Under the pieces are notes generated by a model that had not been told where the DNA came from, made no database searches, and saw only the letters and a list, made by a program, of their open reading frames with translations. This document shows positions 14,062 through 24,881 of a stretch of DNA of 64,000 bases, piece by piece. Each line of letters begins with the position of its first letter. Within the stretch, counting starts at the first letter, position 1. A program made the position numbers and the translations under genes. This DNA is from a virus (taxonomy: Duplodnaviria; Heunggongvirae; Uroviricota; Caudoviricetes), in the IMG/VR virus record IMGVR_UViG_3300028534_000514, positions 192,001 through 256,000 of that record; one strand, given 5' to 3'.

Positions 14062-15516
14062 CTAAATATTCAGAAAATTTGCACGACGAATGCTCGAGGT
14101 ATCTAATGATTTTTTCATTAAAATAATAAATTTTTCGATAGTTAAGAGATATTCATCATATGAAAACCCAAGAGGTTTAAAATTTTCATCAAGATAATGA
14201 CCAAGATTTAGTTTTTGCACAAGGTCTTTCGCCATAGCGTCTAAAATTTCATTGACCGTTTCCTCGTCCCGGAAATAGATATAAAACGACTCAAAAAAGT
14301 GTTTTACTAAAAGATCTTTTATAATCATTTTATTCTTTTTAAGAATATTTTTCTTAAAAAAATCACTTGAAATTTTATAATAATTTCCTTCTTTTAAAAT
14401 ACTATTTCTAGTATATTTTAGATTGGTGGTATAGAAAAATAAATGATCTAAAAAAGCCATATTTGAATCTTTTCTATATGAACTAAAAACATCGAAGTAG
14501 TTTGGCTCTAAAAAATTTTGAGTATATTCATCACTCAATAAACTAAAATTCGATTTCAAATATCTTTTATTTTTTAATATATAATTAAAAATTAAAGAGG
14601 TCATTATGAATTTTTTAGGATTTGCCTGCTTTCCCTGATCAAAAATTAAATCAAAATTTTCAGTAAATAAACCTTCTAATGATTTAAAATAACCGAGTTT
14701 GATTTTGGTTAAATTAGTTGCGTAAAAACTAAATAAATTTTTATGTATTAATGTAATATAAGAACTAAAAATAGCTCTAAGAACAAACGGATTTTTATTT
14801 CGTATCGCTGTAAATAACATATACTTTAGAATTTTTTCAACAATAACATCTGGTGTAATCATTAATACATCATAATAAAATTCTGAAATTTTGGTTTTGG
14901 CATTATATTTTCCAAGCCATTGTTCTATTAACGATTTAATAGTTAAAGTAAATCGTGTGAGTTCCTGATTATAAGCAATAATATTATATAACTCATTAAT
15001 AAATAATTCTGTCGGATTTTTAGTTCCGTTGATATTCTTTATGGTATTAGCTGTCATATATGTTTCAGCTAATCTATTAATAACTTTAAGCAGATAGTGA
15101 TATGAAACTAGTGTAACTCTTTGTACACCATCTTCAAACATTGTTAATGGTATAGGATCCATAACATTTTTAAAAATTTCTTCGAAATGATCGGCGTGCA
15201 ATTGACCAACATTCTTTCGAAGAAAAGCTATTTCATCTTGTTTATATCTATCCAATCGCTCCTGAACTTTTCTCTGCAATTCAAGAAAAAGATCTTCACC
15301 AAATTGCAGAACATGCTTTTTCTTACCAGCTTTTAAATTTTTGGTAACCTGATTCCAATCAATAGTTTTTTCTAACTTTTCCTGAAGCCAAGTTTCAATT
15401 TCATTATCAATATTCCATCTTTCCAAAAATTCGGTAGTAATTTTTTCGACTACTCTATAATCCAAAGAGAGTTTTTTTTCGCGATTGTTATCTAATTTTT
15501 TTCTAACAATTTTCAC
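14062..15516 (-). CDS. Hypothetical protein; candidate promoter-specificity subunit of a non-virion RNA polymerase (AR9 gp226 / phiKZ gp68-like)
   Basis: 484 aa, helical; size and segments resemble AR9 gp226 as recalled, not searched. The CDS is solid; the function is tentative. Confidence 0.4.
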   Translation of the reverse strand: MKIVRKKLDNNREKKLSLDYRVVEKITTEFLERWNIDNEIETWLQEKLEKTIDWNQVTKNLKAGKKKHVLQFGEDLFLELQRKVQERLDRYKQDEIAFLRKNVGQLHADHFEEIFKNVMDPIPLTMFEDGVQRVTLVSYHYLLKVINRLAETYMTANTIKNINGTKNPTELFINELYNIIAYNQELTRFTLTIKSLIEQWLGKYNAKTKISEFYYDVLMITPDVIVEKILKYMLFTAIRNKNPFVLRAIFSSYITLIHKNLFSFYATNLTKIKLGYFKSLEGLFTENFDLIFDQGKQANPKKFIMTSLIFNYILKNKRYLKSNFSLLSDEYTQNFLEPNYFDVFSSYRKDSNMAFLDHLFFYTTNLKYTRNSILKEGNYYKISSDFFKKNILKKNKMIIKDLLVKHFFESFYIYFRDEETVNEILDAMAKDLVQKLNLGHYLDENFKPLGFSYDEYLLTIEKFIILMKKSLDTSSIRRANFLNI

Positions 15517-16064
15517 GAATCAGCTCCCTCAATAAAGGTATTCCAAGGAAAGTCCAGCCAGGTTTTAAGCTCACCTTTTTTAATATATTTACCAACAACA
15601 ATTCCTTGAGTTTTTACTTCACTCTTCGGTTGTTGGCTATATAATACGGTTGGGATTACTTTGATTGCTTTACGATCATCGCGCAATTCCATTGACATTT
15701 CCTCCATAATCTCCCAAAGAACTGTTATAGTGGTTCCTGTATCAATTAAATCATCAACAAGAATAATATTATCAAAGGAATCATAATCAAGCATAAGAGC
15801 ACCGGAAACTTCCATTTTGGCTTTCTCACCAATTTCTGTGCCCTCATATAATTTAGACTGAATAACAGAGATATTCCTAATACCTAGCCCATAGGCAATA
15901 TATTGTGCAGGAATTAATCCTCCTCTTCCAATACCAACGACTAATGTTTTTTTAGTATTAAGTTTTTTCTTTCTTAATTTCTTTACAACTTTACAAGCAG
16001 CTTCTTCAATATCATTCGAAGATAGCTCTATTTTTTTAAATTTAGGAGATTTATTTTTAGCCAT
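15513..16064 (-). CDS. Purine phosphoribosyltransferase (Gpt/Hpt-like type I PRTase)
   Basis: VVGIGRGGLIPA, PRPP-binding motif ILVDDLIDTGTT, C-terminal WLDFPW. Confidence 0.9.
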   Translation of the reverse strand: MAKNKSPKFKKIELSSNDIEEAACKVVKKLRKKKLNTKKTLVVGIGRGGLIPAQYIAYGLGIRNISVIQSKLYEGTEIGEKAKMEVSGALMLDYDSFDNIILVDDLIDTGTTITVLWEIMEEMSMELRDDRKAIKVIPTVLYSQQPKSEVKTQGIVVGKYIKKGELKTWLDFPWNTFIEGADS

Positions 16065-18897: not shown

Positions 18898-19934
18898 TAT
18901 TGTAAAAGCTCCTTTGCTATTTTTACGGATTCTTCCGTTATATTTCTCTGTTTAGCGATTGTAGCTAAAAGAAGTTCATCATCATTCAATTCTTCATCTT
19001 GCTCAAGATTAATCTCTTCAAAAAATTTAAATCCATCTTTTCCCAATTCTTGTAACATATTTATAATATCTGTATTAAACGCTTCACTAAAAGGTAGAGT
19101 CTCAAGTTGAATCTCTTTAAAATCCGTTATAAATTCATTTCCTATATTAACAATATTACCATGTATAAAGGAAGGTTTATGCTCATCGAGCTTTACATGA
19201 TATTCCCTCATAACTCTTGTCAAGTTCCACGGATTAAGAAAGACTGTATTATTTACTGTTTGTATAGCTCCACCTGACGGTTGGAGATGCCAATGCCCGC
19301 ATCCAATAACATTAAAACCATATTGAGAAAGTTGATTATATGTAAAATCGGTTAATCTCGTTTGTTCATCTGTTATATTTGAATGCATTAAAAGAATTTT
19401 AAAGGTATTTGTATTTGAATTATTTTTCCGTTCTAATTCTTCAATTACTTTATCGATCGATTGATGGTGATCAATTCCATATAATTCCACTAATATATTT
19501 TCATCTGTTTCCGATAGATAAAAATTAATTGGTGGTGTATTCGTCCCGATATAATTAATTAAACCTAATTCTACCATTTCACCAAAAACTGTGCCGGCGA
19601 TACTTTCATAACCATCAAAATAATCATGATTGCCCGAATTAGAATAGATAGTTAACCCAGCCCTCTTAAATTTTAAAAGACGTTCTTTATTGGCCTGCAT
19701 TTGATTAAAGGACCAATCTTTCTTCTTACTTTTTTCAAAAACATCTCCGGTGAAAAAAATATTTTTAATATTATTGGCTATCGCATATGAAATAATTTGA
19801 TCCAATTTATTATCGATTGCTCTTTCCCAACCATGTTTTCGAATATTACTTCTAAACCCAAACATAAGATGAGGGTCCTTTACTAAAATAAAATCAAATG
19901 CCATCGGTTTTTGATTAGTATTGGAAATACTCAT
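18897..19934 (-). CDS. SbcD/Mre11/gp47-like metallophosphoesterase nuclease
   Basis: DPH, GDVFE, GNHD, MHS and GHWH motifs; co-operonic with the SbcC-like gene. Confidence 0.9.
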   Translation of the reverse strand: MSISNTNQKPMAFDFILVKDPHLMFGFRSNIRKHGWERAIDNKLDQIISYAIANNIKNIFFTGDVFEKSKKKDWSFNQMQANKERLLKFKRAGLTIYSNSGNHDYFDGYESIAGTVFGEMVELGLINYIGTNTPPINFYLSETDENILVELYGIDHHQSIDKVIEELERKNNSNTNTFKILLMHSNITDEQTRLTDFTYNQLSQYGFNVIGCGHWHLQPSGGAIQTVNNTVFLNPWNLTRVMREYHVKLDEHKPSFIHGNIVNIGNEFITDFKEIQLETLPFSEAFNTDIINMLQELGKDGFKFFEEINLEQDEELNDDELLLATIAKQRNITEESVKIAKELLQ

Positions 19935-20323
19935 TGATTCTCCATTAAAATATATTCATGCTTATCCGATACCAAAAAACGTTTGCATGTTAATTCATCG
20001 AAATAAATTACAGGTATTTCTTTCGGAAGAACATCCCTAATCATATTTGTAATAATAGTTCCTAGTCTACTAAATTCGCGGAATTCATCAGATGAATGTA
20101 TTTTGGCATACCTATCCGGATAACTTTCTTCGCTATTCCAAAAATCAAATTCCTCGTACATTGCTTGCCACTTATCTATTAATGATTTTAAATATTTTGT
20201 CTCTTTAGACGGCAGATTGAATTTTTCTGATAATTCTTCTATATCGATAGCTGCTCCATCACACCATAAACCATCTGCTAAATAATCACAAAAAACTTCT
20301 ATTTTTTTACATCGACTTTTCAT
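19931..20323 (-). CDS. Hypothetical protein
   Basis: 130 aa, SD gaggt, ATGA overlap with sbcD. Confidence 0.75.
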   Translation of the reverse strand: MKSRCKKIEVFCDYLADGLWCDGAAIDIEELSEKFNLPSKETKYLKSLIDKWQAMYEEFDFWNSEESYPDRYAKIHSSDEFREFSRLGTIITNMIRDVLPKEIPVIYFDELTCKRFLVSDKHEYILMENQ

Positions 20324-20380: not shown

Positions 20381-20410
20381 AAAATAAGAGGGGGAATACC
20401 CCCCCCACTT
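20381..20410 (-). terminator. Probable intrinsic terminator after the E1/E2/JAB operon
   Basis: ggggg-aata-ccccc hairpin followed by a U-rich run on the - strand. Confidence 0.55.
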
Positions 20411-20415
20411 AGTAT

Positions 20416-21924
20416 CTACTTGGGATCTGTTTTGCTCGGTTTAACGCTATCAGCGTAATACATTTCCAAAGCATTATTTGGATATTCACATTCTCTGAAT
20501 AAATTTCTTATTTCGATATCCGTGTATCCTGCTTCTTTCATCGCTGTAGCGATTGAGATAATATCTTCATGGGATGTTGACCCATCAATATCCGGATATT
20601 GCTTCAAATCGATTTTATGTACTCGAAGTTTTCCAAGGGTTTGTGTCTTTCTCCAAGGCGGGCGAGTAAGAATATCTCTTTCTTTTTTTGTGGTTCCACT
20701 TGGAAGACGAGTTTCATCCTCGAAATCATCTTCCACATCATATGCCCAACTCAGATAATCATCATCATCATCCAACTCATTATAATACTCAGTATCATAT
20801 ACATTATAAGTATTTTTTCTGGCCTTATTAGTTTTATCACTTTTGTATTTATTACGGTAATTATAATATGAAACTTCTTGTTCAATCAGTTCTGGATCAA
20901 TGATAAGCATTGGTTCATACTTGAATTCGGATAGAAAAGCGTTAAATATCTCTTTGATTTGTGGATACTCGCCTCCCACCCATTTCTGATCAACTTTATA
21001 TTCGATTTCAGTTTTATCTTCTGATACTCCGCCGAAGAATTCTTCGAATCCAATTCTCTGGACTTCATCCTGGATAATATAACTAATTGTAGGAGTTTCA
21101 AGGTACTGACCTTCAATACCACCATCCTCTAAAGGGGATACAGTAACCCCACGTGTTTCCGTTACTACAATTTTAACGCTTTGGTTATATGGTAGATACA
21201 TAACAGAATCGACCTGAATTTTATCCTCGCATCCAAGGTTTCTAAAGATAACACCTGGTTTTTCAACCTGATTATCTAGATCTGTAGCGGAAAATCCAAA
21301 ATCTCCAGGATGTCGGTGAATACTTCCCATTTCAAGTTCTCTCGCTGTGACCTTAAAACCTTGCGCTTCAAAGAAAGGCAGAGGAAAATGAGCATGAAAT
21401 TCTTTCGCGAGTTCCAGCGAAATTGGAGCAACTTGCTCCGAGATTTCGGCTACCTCATTAAGGTTAAAATCTACGCTGGCCGCAGTAACCTTTTGGGGCA
21501 TATTGAAAAAAACCGTTGGAATGGTAAATACCAATCTTTTATTTGAATTTGGTTTCTCAATAACATATTGTACACCTCTAAAATGTACCTGGAATTCAGA
21601 TGCATTTGCGGCAGGTTTACAAATTCGTGCAATTTCATCGAGTGTGCTCTGATTGTATAAAACAACTGATAGCGTTTCCGGATCTTTACCAACAATCGGC
21701 TTTGTTTTTTTCGACTGCCAAAACGATCTTTTTTTTGTACCAGTTTTTTGAACTTTAGGTTCAGGCTTCCCGATAATCCCCGGTGTTTTGCTTCTTTCTT
21801 TAACGCCAGTCTCAGTACCTTCATTCTTTTTGAATATATCGAACATCTCATCTCCTTGAGTATTTTTTAACTTTTTTGACTCTTTTAACTTTTTTTTCTT
21901 ATCTTTTTTAGATTTTTTGGACAT
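20416..21924 (-). CDS. JAB/MPN+ metallo-isopeptidase
   Basis: Upstream E (SEFQ) and JAMM motif GSIHRHPGDFGFSATD (HxH-x7-S-x2-D). Confidence 0.75.
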   Translation of the reverse strand: MSKKSKKDKKKKLKESKKLKNTQGDEMFDIFKKNEGTETGVKERSKTPGIIGKPEPKVQKTGTKKRSFWQSKKTKPIVGKDPETLSVVLYNQSTLDEIARICKPAANASEFQVHFRGVQYVIEKPNSNKRLVFTIPTVFFNMPQKVTAASVDFNLNEVAEISEQVAPISLELAKEFHAHFPLPFFEAQGFKVTARELEMGSIHRHPGDFGFSATDLDNQVEKPGVIFRNLGCEDKIQVDSVMYLPYNQSVKIVVTETRGVTVSPLEDGGIEGQYLETPTISYIIQDEVQRIGFEEFFGGVSEDKTEIEYKVDQKWVGGEYPQIKEIFNAFLSEFKYEPMLIIDPELIEQEVSYYNYRNKYKSDKTNKARKNTYNVYDTEYYNELDDDDDYLSWAYDVEDDFEDETRLPSGTTKKERDILTRPPWRKTQTLGKLRVHKIDLKQYPDIDGSTSHEDIISIATAMKEAGYTDIEIRNLFRECEYPNNALEMYYADSVKPSKTDPK

Positions 21925-23054
21925 TATGCCTCCTCTAACTCTTTCTTTTTTTCTTCAACTATTACTCCAAAAATATCCGCAGCAACTTTCTTTGAAGCTT
22001 TAATAAACGGAAATACATGCTCTCTTGAAATAACATCACTATAGTACATACTATCTAGATTTACACGCGATAGTGTAAACCAACCCTTTGGGAGAATCGA
22101 ATTTTCGGAACCGGTACATACATTTGAGCTATTACCTGATTCATAAAAGTTTTTAAAACTTCTTTCACCCTCTCTATGACATTGACTAATATTTCCGGTA
22201 ACCATTGGTCCAAGACCAAACCCTCTAATTTCATCATTTGTCGGCTTAGTAATACAAGATAATCCATAATAAGGAGAGAGTGTTCCATCAACAATCAATT
22301 GATGAGGAATGGCCAATGTTTTGATTTTTCCCAAATCTGTTCTACCGGTATCACTTTTATGGATTTGAATAATAGTTTGAATATTTTCGATAAATGGATC
22401 CTCAATAATAGAAGCTACTTCGTGATCACTCACTGAAGCAGTCTGCTTTATAGTAACCGGTTCTTTTACAATCTGAGGGGATAGCCCAAAAAAGTCAGTA
22501 TAATCCTCAATGTATTTCTCGATATATGATGGTTTTTCTGATTTGTCTTTAATGTATCTCAACGCAGAAGGCTTCCACTCAAAAATATGGAGTTTTCCTC
22601 TTTTTGGTAATTCTAGCAAATTTGCCGAAATAAGAAAGGCTACCATCGGATGAAGAGGGTTTATCGCAAAGGAACCACTATCCTTTTGAAGTACTACACC
22701 ATAGACTGATTCTTCTTCAGCCAGCTGCTTCAAAAATGATTCAAGTGGCACGCTTTCATCAAAGGTTACCGTCGTAATATTGGGGTCAATGTACTCACGT
22801 TTAAAATCTTGAAAATACATTGGCGTTTCAAATGTTTTGCTTCCATCATCTTTTGGGTAAAACGTTGGAAAAGTTTGCTCTAAGGGTGAGCACCTCTCAG
22901 AAAATGGAATATAGATATCTCCATTTTCATTAATGAATTGGACAGAATCGTCGACCATGTCTTCGACATTATTACGAACGATCATATCCTTTACTGAATT
23001 TAACAGTGAATAACTCATAACGGAGACCCCACGCATCGAATCATTAAACATCAT
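21924..23054 (-). CDS. Prokaryotic E2-like (UBC-fold) protein, tentative
   Basis: GNIS...SSNVCTG recalls the HPNI...ICLG active-site Cys motif; lies between ThiF and JAB genes. Confidence 0.5.
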   Translation of the reverse strand: MMFNDSMRGVSVMSYSLLNSVKDMIVRNNVEDMVDDSVQFINENGDIYIPFSERCSPLEQTFPTFYPKDDGSKTFETPMYFQDFKREYIDPNITTVTFDESVPLESFLKQLAEEESVYGVVLQKDSGSFAINPLHPMVAFLISANLLELPKRGKLHIFEWKPSALRYIKDKSEKPSYIEKYIEDYTDFFGLSPQIVKEPVTIKQTASVSDHEVASIIEDPFIENIQTIIQIHKSDTGRTDLGKIKTLAIPHQLIVDGTLSPYYGLSCITKPTNDEIRGFGLGPMVTGNISQCHREGERSFKNFYESGNSSNVCTGSENSILPKGWFTLSRVNLDSMYYSDVISREHVFPFIKASKKVAADIFGVIVEEKKKELEEA

Positions 23055-24021
23055 AAACCTCCTTTAAAATCGATGGATTTTCTTCGATATATTTTTTCAT
23101 ATCGAAATCTAAAAGCCTTTGATCTGGCTGATATTCTTCATCACTAGCCAAAACTTTAATGAAAGCAGCAGTAGCCAATTGAAGATTAATTAGGAGTACT
23201 GGGATATCAATCGATCCGTACGTCTCCACAGCTAGACCGGAGATAGATTGTGGACTATAAGTAATATCTACTTCGTAGTCGCTATGTCCGAGAAAAAAGA
23301 ATTTTTTATCGGATAGCATCTGTCTTGTTTCTAGGGTAGGTGCACCGACAAAAATATAATTCTTTTTGTCGAGAAAAGCTGCTGCCTCGCTATCCAACCA
23401 ATCGACAAACATAATAGACTTACGTTCTTTACTGAGCTCACGTTCGGTGCTTAACATACTGATTTTTTTCAGCGTTTTGATATTTGGAACTTCTTTATCA
23501 TATTTTCGAATATAGTCAGGACTATAGTCAAAAACCACTGGTTTTCCCATCCGTAGAAGATTAGTAAAGTCCAAATCATCTTTCTCGAAAATAACAAGCT
23601 TTTCAAATACTTTGGTTTGGCTCAATTCCATCGACCACAGATACATATTGTAAAGCATATTTACCATTGCGCCGCCATAACCGACAACACAAAGCTTTAC
23701 CCCTTTTTCTTTAATTTTTTTAAAATCTTCCTCTGTTGGACGAATGTCCAGTTCATCGAGTAGATGTTGCATTAACGGATCCTCGAATGATGCAGGATTT
23801 CCGCTTTTTCTCGCCGGTACGTTTTTAACTAAAAGGTATGATGACTTTAAGATATTTTCGTTCATCACCCTTAATTTATTTGCTTCGTTTTTTGAAAAAG
23901 GCTCTTTAAAAAATCGATGAATAATTCGATTATCATCGTAAGGTAGTATACTCTCAGTGGAGTATCTCATTCGGATTTCATTATCCAAATAGTCTGTTAA
24001 TTTTTCTTGGTTTTCACTCAT
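23044..24021 (-). CDS. ThiF/E1-like adenylating enzyme
   Basis: LCVVGYGG Rossmann loop, FEKDDLDFTNLLR, downstream K and ETR. Confidence 0.7.
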   Translation of the reverse strand: MSENQEKLTDYLDNEIRMRYSTESILPYDDNRIIHRFFKEPFSKNEANKLRVMNENILKSSYLLVKNVPARKSGNPASFEDPLMQHLLDELDIRPTEEDFKKIKEKGVKLCVVGYGGAMVNMLYNMYLWSMELSQTKVFEKLVIFEKDDLDFTNLLRMGKPVVFDYSPDYIRKYDKEVPNIKTLKKISMLSTERELSKERKSIMFVDWLDSEAAAFLDKKNYIFVGAPTLETRQMLSDKKFFFLGHSDYEVDITYSPQSISGLAVETYGSIDIPVLLINLQLATAAFIKVLASDEEYQPDQRLLDFDMKKYIEENPSILKEVYDV

Positions 24022-24030
24022 CTTTTTCCT

Positions 24031-24126
24031 TTATATAAATGTGATTATTCCAGTATCTTCATCGTCTGAACCATCATATACATATGTACCATGCGATTCG
24101 ATTTGGACTATCTTTGGTAAAAGCAT
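24031..24126 (-). CDS. Small acidic peptide (31 aa) heading the E1/E2/JAB operon
   Basis: SD aaagga + ATG; MLLPKIVQIESHGTYVYDGSDDEDTGIITFI; stop abuts the ThiF SD. Confidence 0.55.
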   Translation of the reverse strand: MLLPKIVQIESHGTYVYDGSDDEDTGIITFI

Positions 24127-24199: not shown

Positions 24200-24739
24200 T
24201 TAAGATAGTTGTCTTAAATCATTATACCTTGCTAGTCCTTTGATTCCCTCGTATCGGGTGGCGCGATATAACAGATCTATCAATGCCTTATCCTTTTTTT
24301 TATTAGGTGGCAATAATATCCACTCTGGAAAAGGTTTTAAGTCTTCTTTCATGGTAATCGGTTTACCAGATAATAACTTTGAAAGAATCTTTCTTAACCA
24401 TAATCTCGGGATTAAAGATATATTCTCACGTATTACCTCAAAGGCGTATGACGCAATATCCGGCTCCGGGTATATTTTTTCGGGTGGCTTTAATTTGCCT
24501 GTAATTTTGACCCCTACTGGTAAATCTTGTAAGACATCATCTTTTGGATAAAATCCTATCTTACCATTTGATAATCGAATTAAATAACCGGTGATATTAC
24601 CGTCGTCCGAAATTATATTCCCGATTACCATATTTGGAGTATAGAATGATTTTTTAGCCGCTATGGCTGCCTTTTTTAAATCATCTATTACCTTTGTCCA
24701 CCAAATTGGTGGTTGAGATTGTTTGGATTGGGGTTCCAT
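24200..24739 (-). CDS. Hypothetical protein (179 aa, start MEPQSKQ)
   Basis: SD aaagga before ATG 24739; the longer track start runs through the tRNA. Confidence 0.75.
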   Translation of the reverse strand: MEPQSKQSQPPIWWTKVIDDLKKAAIAAKKSFYTPNMVIGNIISDDGNITGYLIRLSNGKIGFYPKDDVLQDLPVGVKITGKLKPPEKIYPEPDIASYAFEVIRENISLIPRLWLRKILSKLLSGKPITMKEDLKPFPEWILLPPNKKKDKALIDLLYRATRYEGIKGLARYNDLRQLS

Positions 24740-24757
24740 ATTTATCCTTTTAAAAAA

Positions 24758-24831
24758 AATTCCGTCCTGGACTTGAACCAGGGTCCTCCCGGCTCTGTAG
24801 CCGGGCGCTCTACCAACTGAGCTAACGGAAT
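24758..24831 (-). tRNA. Atypical tRNA with 8-nt anticodon loop CUACAGAG; Cys(ACA)-like; CCA not encoded
   Basis: Acceptor ATTCCGT/ACGGAAT; D arm GCTC-AGTTGGTA-GAGC; anticodon stem CCCGG/CCGGG; T arm CCTGG-TTCAAGT-CCAGG; U73. Confidence 0.85.
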
Positions 24832-24881
24832 ATTGGTTGCCCATGAAGGGAAATAAAAATCTTTACTTCCCTTCAATCATA

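Follow-up and report, generated by a model that had tools for sequence, protein, structure and literature searches.

We have analysed a four-gene cassette of a jumbo phage, in which a micro open reading frame (micro-ORF) precedes the genes for an E1-like protein, a protein with one invariant cysteine and a JAB protein. The cassette may direct a form of peptide tagging that keeps the logic of the ubiquitin pathway while a short unfolded peptide stands in for the beta-grasp ubiquitin-like protein (Ubl); we give this reading a probability of roughly 45%. The cassette occupies positions 20416–24126 of a window of 64,000 nt (the whole stretch of DNA that was analysed), which covers positions 192,001 to 256,000 of IMG/VR record IMGVR_UViG_3300028534_000514, a 281,455-base record of an uncultured virus that CheckV rates as complete. 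The established features of the cassette are the predicted E1 fold with the motifs of its ATP site, the JAMM site, the invariant cysteine, the conservation of the micro-ORF and a gene order that persists across deep divergence.

In the proposed scheme the 31-aa product of 24031–24126 would be a pro-peptide, which the JAB protein would cleave after a conserved Gly (at the junction of Y-D-G and the acidic tail) to leave a C-terminal Gly. The E1-like enzyme, which is devoid of a conserved cysteine, would adenylate the carboxylate of the trimmed peptide with ATP, and the acyl group would then move to Cys313 of the middle protein, a carrier and possibly a ligase. Finally, the peptide would be transferred to an amine of a phage or host target, and the JAB protein may also reverse the mark. 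We infer every chemical step, from the cleavage site, the peptide adenylation and the thioester to the conjugation and its target. The scheme is reasonable because the type I Bub system (BubAB, Ubl and E2; BubCD, JAB and E1; and BubE) has an E1 that lacks the catalytic cysteine and a JAB-E1 fusion that cleaves the Ubl precursor (PMC11601596).

Gene layout and the upstream peptide

The four ORFs and the terminator-like element that follows them are these:

24031..24126, minus strand: micro-ORF (31 aa), candidate pro-peptide or modifier; ORF with a ribosome-binding site (RBS), conserved in relatives
23044..24021, minus strand: P0001, E1/ThiF-fold adenylating enzyme (325 aa), from predicted fold and family invariants
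21924..23054, minus strand: P0002, conserved-cysteine protein (376 aa, possibly 375 aa if counted from the second Met), no matched fold, candidate thioester carrier or ligase, from family alignments
20416..21924, minus strand: P0003, JAB/MPN+ metallopeptidase (502 aa), from JAMM residues and structural neighbours
20388..20406, minus strand: intrinsic-terminator-like G+C-rich hairpin and T-run, just past the last stop codon

The genes for P0001 and P0002 share 11 nt at their junction, while those for P0002 and P0003 have one base in common. The hairpin has an 8-bp stem with six G-C pairs, followed by the T-run; the region yields 11 terminator-like descriptions against 3.1 expected from shuffles, most of the 11 being the same hairpin described again. 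The cassette genes are translationally coupled, with one terminator for all. A sequence-only reading of this DNA had quoted these genes, motifs, overlaps and terminator, and all of them are present on the minus strand; the quoted motifs are invariant across 30–121 homologues and so are not due to chance.

Searches with Pfam, PHROGs, NCBIfam and PADLOC models gave zero matches for any of the four cassette proteins. Sequence searches of the Protein Data Bank (PDB) gave no match for them either, and profile searches of the three larger families returned nothing meaningful. What we assign to them is therefore based on alignments of the families, on predicted structures and on the context of the genes.

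The micro-ORF peptide starts with a hydrophobic part, continues with Y-D-G (Gly19) and finishes with an acidic tail of 12 residues, the last of which are hydrophobic. The RBS of the micro-ORF, AAGGA, lies 6 nt upstream, and its stop codon precedes the ATG of the E1-like gene by 9 nt. A metagenome scan gave nine loci with relatives of the E1-like gene, and in six of them (L002–L007) a small ORF with its own RBS is situated just upstream of that gene. The peptides of this near clade follow a common pattern: two to three hydrophobic or aromatic residues, then D, E or G followed by G (in short form Y-[D/E]-G), an acidic cluster and, last before the stop codon, a few hydrophobic residues. All seven upstream regions contain the pattern, which appears in at most one of 2000 shuffles per locus, with the reservation that it was written after the data had been seen and that two of the loci, L006 and L007, hardly differ from each other. 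The rest of the 281-kb genome does not contain it. The C-terminal residues of the peptides are I, I, Y, T, I and M for the near clade; for distant loci they are I, K, K and C. In L006 (5856–5983) and in L007 there is also a G+C-rich inverted repeat after the micro-ORF stop and before the E1-like gene, which may serve to regulate the expression of peptide and enzymes or to uncouple the one from the other.

A subfamily alignment built from distant relatives of the cysteine protein, about 20% identical to P0002, led to five IMG/VR contigs of 57–167 kb (L025–L029). Profiles made from the three alignments place an E1-like gene immediately upstream of the cysteine-protein gene in all five contigs and a JAB gene immediately downstream in four. 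Catalytic and invariant residues are kept in the E1-like, cysteine and JAB proteins of these contigs. A small ORF is present upstream of the E1-like gene in four of the five, with Ser-Gly near the end followed by one to eight residues: that of L025 has 38 aa and ends S-G-I, that of L026 has 46 aa and ends S-G-S-G-A-K, and that of L029 has 50 aa, with S-G before an acidic tail of eight residues. In the 167-kb contig L028, the gene directly upstream of the E1-like gene (L028:2679-3419, plus strand) has a period of 171 nt with 95% matches. Its product consists of a 20-residue leader ending K-S-G, four tandem units of ~57 aa, low in complexity, rich in Ser and Thr and each ending K-S-G, and a single final Lys.

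The common denominator across clades, as judged from the predicted peptides, is thus a Gly followed by a short, apparently dispensable tail. Just upstream of the micro-ORF, L025 (3427–3684) and L026 (2519–2806) also have a conserved ORF of 85–95 aa, which, from its length and alternating pattern, might encode a small beta-rich domain; the window has no such ORF.

The sequence-only reading had mentioned the 31-aa peptide as the only extra gene, which is true, and had set it aside, which does not hold, as the peptide is a conserved part of the cassette. Its further proposal, a cassette with no visible modifier and possibly a host-derived one, is most likely wrong. The 31-aa ORF product is the best candidate modifier, because the ORF is conserved, has its own RBS and has counterparts with a Gly near the end in distant cassettes.

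The E1-like, JAB and cysteine proteins

P0001 has G-Y-G-G at residues 114–117 and D-D-L-D-F-T-N-L-L-R at 148–157, and 56 metagenomic homologues were found. Its AlphaFold2 (AF2) model is of high confidence (predicted local distance difference test, pLDDT, 89.4; predicted TM score, pTM, 0.90). Every match listed in a Foldseek search of the PDB with this model is E1-like (E-values of about 3e-5 to 5e-4): PaaA at the top, then ThiF, Uba4, UBA5, MccB, MoeB, AclA and the NEDD8 E1. VIA-align gave Z values of 10.3–11.7 across about 180–250 residues. The best match was Cap2 (Z 11.7, 182 residues aligned, root-mean-square deviation 3.4), and the longest alignment was with the E1 of the Bil system, 8tz0_B (Z 11.3, 246 residues aligned, model residues 12–315); ThiF reached Z 11.1 and many Uba1 entries Z of about 11. 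The modelled fold is that of the E1-like adenylating superfamily, within which the tied Z values do not single out a subfamily. When the P0001 family was compared by hhalign with five Cap2-like E2-E1 proteins taken from Bacteroidota genomes, the G-x-G-G loop and the N-x-x-R finger were aligned (E 8e-4).

Counted over 37 close and seven very distant members, the invariant residues of the family are R17 (present in six of the seven distant copies), N31, G114, G116, G117, N121, N154, R157, G226-A227-P228, R233, H246, E266, Y268, G269 and N279. The nucleotide-binding glycines (G114, G116, G117) and the arginine finger N154/R157 are invariant in both the close and the distant sets. The label ThiF-like, first given from motifs, thus agrees with the predicted fold in Foldseek and VIA-align and with the family motifs.

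The only cysteine of P0001, C111, lies in the Rossmann strand at a position that varies among relatives, and the family has no conserved cysteine at all, including in or near the crossover loop, where canonical E1 enzymes carry the catalytic one. The view of P0001 as an adenylation-only E1 with a single Cys is borne out, since the family conserves no cysteine. The invariant E-x-Y-G (E266, Y268, G269) sits in a loop modelled with low confidence (pLDDT 59 for residues 261–270), which from its position in the chain we take as the crossover loop.

The Pfam ThiF model (PF00899) is blind to P0001, which has no Pfam match at E-values up to 1. In a six-frame search of the 281-kb genome, ThiF gave just one weak match (14 bits, E 0.003), at 15861–15992 on the minus strand within the ORF 15513–16064; the matched segment is Rossmann-like and belongs to an unrelated protein of 183 aa. 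With the only genome signal of the model being an unrelated protein, the real E1-like gene must be strongly diverged.

P0003 begins with a Lys-rich stretch of ~80 aa, followed by the JAB core (residues ~90–290); further on, an acidic stretch lies close to position 385, and the C-terminal region is conserved. The motif H-R-H-P...S-A-T-D occupies residues 203–215, and the JAMM constellation E110, H203, H205, S212 and D215 is invariant in 35 homologues as well as in five distant loci. The spacer from the second His to the Ser has six residues; the textbook JAMM spacer has seven. The ESM Atlas model of P0003 is poor (pLDDT 0.38); among its 30 nearest models, taken as one row per family set, the five neighbours listed all carry JAB/MPN families (Prok-JAB, eIF3h, Toxin-JAB1 and CSN5), with TM scores by target of 0.50 and 0.55 for two Prok-JAB clusters. 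When the family was compared by hhalign with five Cap3 JAB proteins, exactly the H-x-H...S-x-x-D block was aligned, weakly (E 0.008, probability 5%). P0003 gave no match to Pfam models (JAB, Prok-JAB, RadC), NCBIfam or PADLOC, and a profile search of the PDB was empty. We accept the JAB assignment made earlier; the Lys-rich N terminus and the acidic stretch described with it are present as well.

The middle protein, P0002, has N-V-C-T-G at residues 311–315. Over 121 diverse members of its family G119, N132, P261, G264, N288, C313 and S335 are invariant, and H135, P136, Q252, Y263, G315 and N332 nearly so. C313 is also invariant in seven further distant copies, where the other invariant residues are likewise kept. 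An exhaustive search with a hidden Markov model (HMM) of the family yielded 306 representative clusters, of which 236 have E-values below 1e-10. The P0002 family is thus large and phage-restricted, with one invariant cysteine, for which a carrier role is plausible.

The AF2 model of P0002 is of reasonable quality (pLDDT 79, pTM 0.78) but has no match among known folds. With the full-length model the best PDB match in Foldseek had an E-value of 0.2, with no E2 among the matches, and VIA-align against 48,161 representative chains gave a best Z of 3.7, none reaching 5; a second look with VIA-align gave a best Z of 3.4. A search of the ESM Atlas returned noise (scores below 0.8), and BFVD supplied the sole structural relative, a phage protein that is itself uncharacterised. 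Pfam scans of the 121 family members at E-values of 0.01 and 10 showed no E2 and no recurring family, the family profile found nothing in the PDB, and hhalign against the five Cap2-like E2-E1 proteins detected no E2 similarity (E 0.61 and 0.18).

The sequence-only reading had called P0002 E2-like. The N-V-C-T-G motif on which it drew is real, but neither a ubiquitin-conjugating (UBC) fold nor E2 profile similarity was detected, and we have dropped the label. By eye, P-Y-Y-G ... T-G-N-I ... Cys in P0002 resembles the UBC pattern (P-Y-x-G-G ... H-P-N-I ... Cys); no test supported the resemblance, and we do not rely on it. A strict filing of the locus as E1-E2-JAB fails because a UBC fold of P0002 could not be shown, a point which that reading had itself named as telling against it.

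Weighing the peptide-tagging reading

Several observations weigh against peptide tagging. The Mg-binding Asp of ThiF and MoeB, at the end of strand 4 and part of the T-D-N motif of MoeB, aligns by eye with a position after the invariant G-A-P that is T, D, N or G in the P0001 family; adenylation activity is therefore not assured. For P0002, neither a UBC fold nor similarity to E2 profiles could be detected. In the near-clade peptide the residues ahead of the Gly show little conservation and number only about eight in L006, few for a tag that is to be recognised, while the best conserved part is the acidic tail, odd for a pro-segment to be discarded. The distant contig L027 has no clear peptide, and L028 has the E1-like and cysteine-protein genes adjacent with no JAB gene found beside the pair.

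In addition, the clade of L008, L009 and L013 has no recognisable acidic micro-ORF, and its E1-like and cysteine-protein genes are duplicated. The order in L008 (4402–10010), L009 and L013/L014, which are metagenome contigs and a contig of a Chlorobiota metagenome-assembled genome, is E1, cysteine protein, JAB, E1', cysteine protein', with a 112-aa ORF before the first E1-like gene; all invariant residues are kept in both copies of each duplicated gene.

Of the known neighbours of E1-like genes, those for microcin C7 (MccB) and pantocin A (PaaA) resemble the cassette in having a very short peptide gene beside the gene for the E1-like enzyme. A ribosomally synthesized and post-translationally modified peptide (RiPP) could mature here in the same way: the JAB protein would excise a core, the E1-like enzyme would modify it through adenylation of a carboxylate, in the manner of MccB and PaaA, the cysteine protein would add a step, and a free modified peptide would result with no tagging. 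PaaA is the top Foldseek match of P0001, MccB stands high among the matches listed, and the E1-like family has no conserved cysteine. PaaA acts on Glu side chains, a chemistry with which the conserved acidic cluster of the near-clade peptide can be compared, and a multi-unit precursor like that of L028 is typical of some RiPPs. We nevertheless regard this explanation as unlikely. By VIA-align Z, PaaA and MccB do not rise above ThiF, Cap2 or Uba1; the peptide lacks the C-terminal Asn of MccB substrates; and no exporter, immunity or tailoring genes are found nearby, the neighbours being topoisomerase II and Mre11/Rad50. An invariant-Cys partner together with a JAB protein marks conjugation systems and not the known E1-type RiPP clusters, in which terms the Cys partner is left without a role.

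It is rather improbable that the cassette, as the sequence-only reading had it, is an E1-E2-JAB set for the activation of a folded Ubl whose gene would lie elsewhere in the phage genome or in the host, with the 31-aa ORF irrelevant or regulatory. An E1 fold, a JAB protein and a cysteine protein are all present, and divergent Ubls can escape HMMs just as the E1-like and JAB proteins did here. However, ThiS, ubiquitin and Multi_ubiq models found nothing in the 281-kb phage genome, and small ORFs ending in G-G plus zero to three residues number only three in the genome, all far from the cassette, in agreement with the earlier remark that no GG-ending beta-grasp protein is adjacent. It is the micro-ORF, not a Ubl, that is kept beside the E1-like gene across clades, and the UBC fold that an E2 would bring was not found for P0002.

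Equally improbable, in our view, is a separation of functions, in which the enzymes would process a protein C terminus or a non-protein carboxylate (in nucleotide or DNA-base modification) and the peptide would be either a leader ORF or a mimic of the acidic tip of the single-stranded DNA-binding protein (SSB), competing for replication and repair partners. The micro-ORF tail presumably resembles the acidic C-terminal tip of SSB, the acidic cluster and hydrophobic C terminus are what the near-clade peptide conserves best, and in all relatives the cassette is flanked by topoisomerase II and Mre11/Rad50. Against this, the distant small ORFs keep the Gly near the end with no acidic/hydrophobic tail (that of L029 being acidic), and the tandem-unit gene of L028 argues for the release of Gly-ending units.

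Least probable of all is a counter-defence deconjugase, with the JAB protein stripping conjugates of the host ubiquitin-like defences that are known to exist (Bil, CBASS and Bub; PMC11601596, PMC10097602) and the E1-like and cysteine proteins acting as decoys or traps for host components. The intact JAB active site favours this reading, which leaves the strict co-conservation of peptide, E1-like and cysteine protein unexplained; the JAB protein has no close similarity to Cap3 (the hhalign probability of 5%) and no PADLOC match, and the cassette is a core syntenic module and not a variable accessory gene.

Peptide tagging can also be set beside the characterised systems that pair E1 and JAB functions. 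In type II CBASS (cyclic oligonucleotide-based antiphage signaling system), Cap2 is an E2-E1 fusion and Cap3 a JAB protein, and they act on the C terminus of the CD-NTase (PMC10097602). The cassette shares with CBASS an E1-type adenylation domain, Cap2 being the best VIA-align match of P0001, and a JAB partner. It differs in being phage-encoded, in having separate E1-like and cysteine-protein genes, in an E1 without the catalytic cysteine, in a cysteine protein without similarity to the E2 domain of Cap2, and in a candidate substrate that is a free micro-peptide in need of trimming. No PADLOC defence model matched the four cassette proteins, and no search of the genome for a CD-NTase was made.

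With Bub the cassette shares a Cys-less E1, a JAB protein tied to the E1 and a modifier precursor that, as proposed here, would be cleaved before use. In BubCD, Tyr is the only invariant residue of the crossover loop (PMC11601596), and the invariant E-x-Y-G of P0001 may correspond to it. The Ubls of Bub have the beta-grasp fold, its E2 is recognisable and works by serine (oxyester) chemistry, and its protease is of the DUF6527 type; in contrast, the cassette has its invariant Cys on a protein without a matched fold, no Ubl and separate genes.

The gene set of Bil (BilABCD, bacterial ISG15-like) has the same logic of modifier, E2-like carrier, JAB and E1, and the Bil E1 aligns with the longest stretch of the P0001 model. 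Unlike the cassette, in which neither is demonstrable, Bil has a folded Ubl (BilA) and a UBC-type E2 (BilB). As to the peptide, the head-to-tail K-S-G units of L028 with one extra final residue, and the Gly followed by a 12-residue tail in the window, recall the precursors of polyubiquitin and of Ubls; the units are, in contrast to those of polyubiquitin, low-complexity Ser/Thr-rich peptides or a 31-mer and not beta-grasp domains.

Genomic setting and meaning

In every related locus that is long enough, the order of genes is topoisomerase II subunits, o87, o214, (peptide), E1, cysteine protein, JAB, o130, Mre11/SbcD, o105, Rad50. Because this order is fixed in all sufficiently long loci, the cassette belongs to the syntenic core of the replication/recombination block in a jumbo-phage clade and is not an accessory island. 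Three of the flanking ORFs of the window have no family match:

24200-24844, minus strand: o214 (214 aa), conserved beside the cassette
19931-20323, minus strand: o130, adjoins the Mre11/SbcD gene; synteny conserved in L005
18580-18897, minus strand: o105, adjoins the Mre11/SbcD gene; synteny conserved throughout relatives

The 5' end of o214 is probably over-called, the likely start being Met36 at 24739, because relatives align only from about residue 39.

Five different queries gave no DNA or tblastn match to the cassette in GenBank phage genomes. The genome collection gave a single match, on a 4-kb contig that is assigned to a Chlorobiota metagenome-assembled genome and is most likely phage DNA, and no member of the cassette families was found in 400 other Bacteroidota genomes. 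Our literature search found no paper that describes a phage cassette of peptide, E1, cysteine protein and JAB; the papers found cover bacterial Bil, Bub and CBASS. A 2006 survey of prokaryotic E1/E2/JAB neighbourhoods covers phages with pairs of tail Ubl and JAB genes only, and a comparative review of jumbo phages (PMC7824862) does not mention JAB, E1-like or ThiF proteins.

More tentatively than for this one cassette, we suggest that a protein-tagging pathway not described before is encoded by many tailed phages that have not been cultured, ranging from N4-sized podophages up to the 281-kb jumbo phage. An unfolded peptide of ~15–60 residues would be freed by a JAB protein from a pro- or polypeptide and handled by a Cys-less E1 and a new, non-UBC cysteine enzyme; in the phage studied here the pathway, tied to the replication/recombination module, would mark phage or host proteins of DNA transactions. 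What the jumbo-phage branch adds is its own peptide type (Y-D-G and an acidic tail), a fixed place in the replication/recombination module and a measured size of the cysteine-protein family.

Should peptide tagging fail as an explanation, the trio of E1-like, cysteine and JAB proteins would still be a widespread conserved phage module without an assigned function. If peptide tagging is true, ubiquitin-type chemistry (E1 adenylation, a Cys carrier, and trimming or removal by JAB) can run without a beta-grasp modifier or a recognisable E2, and it would be used by bacterial viruses and not only by the defence systems of their hosts. A large phage-specific enzyme family, the 306 clusters of the cysteine protein, would then join the ubiquitin-like world. 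The cassette would provide a minimal and compact peptide-ligation system, with possible use as a tool, and would make it testable what phages tag during replication.

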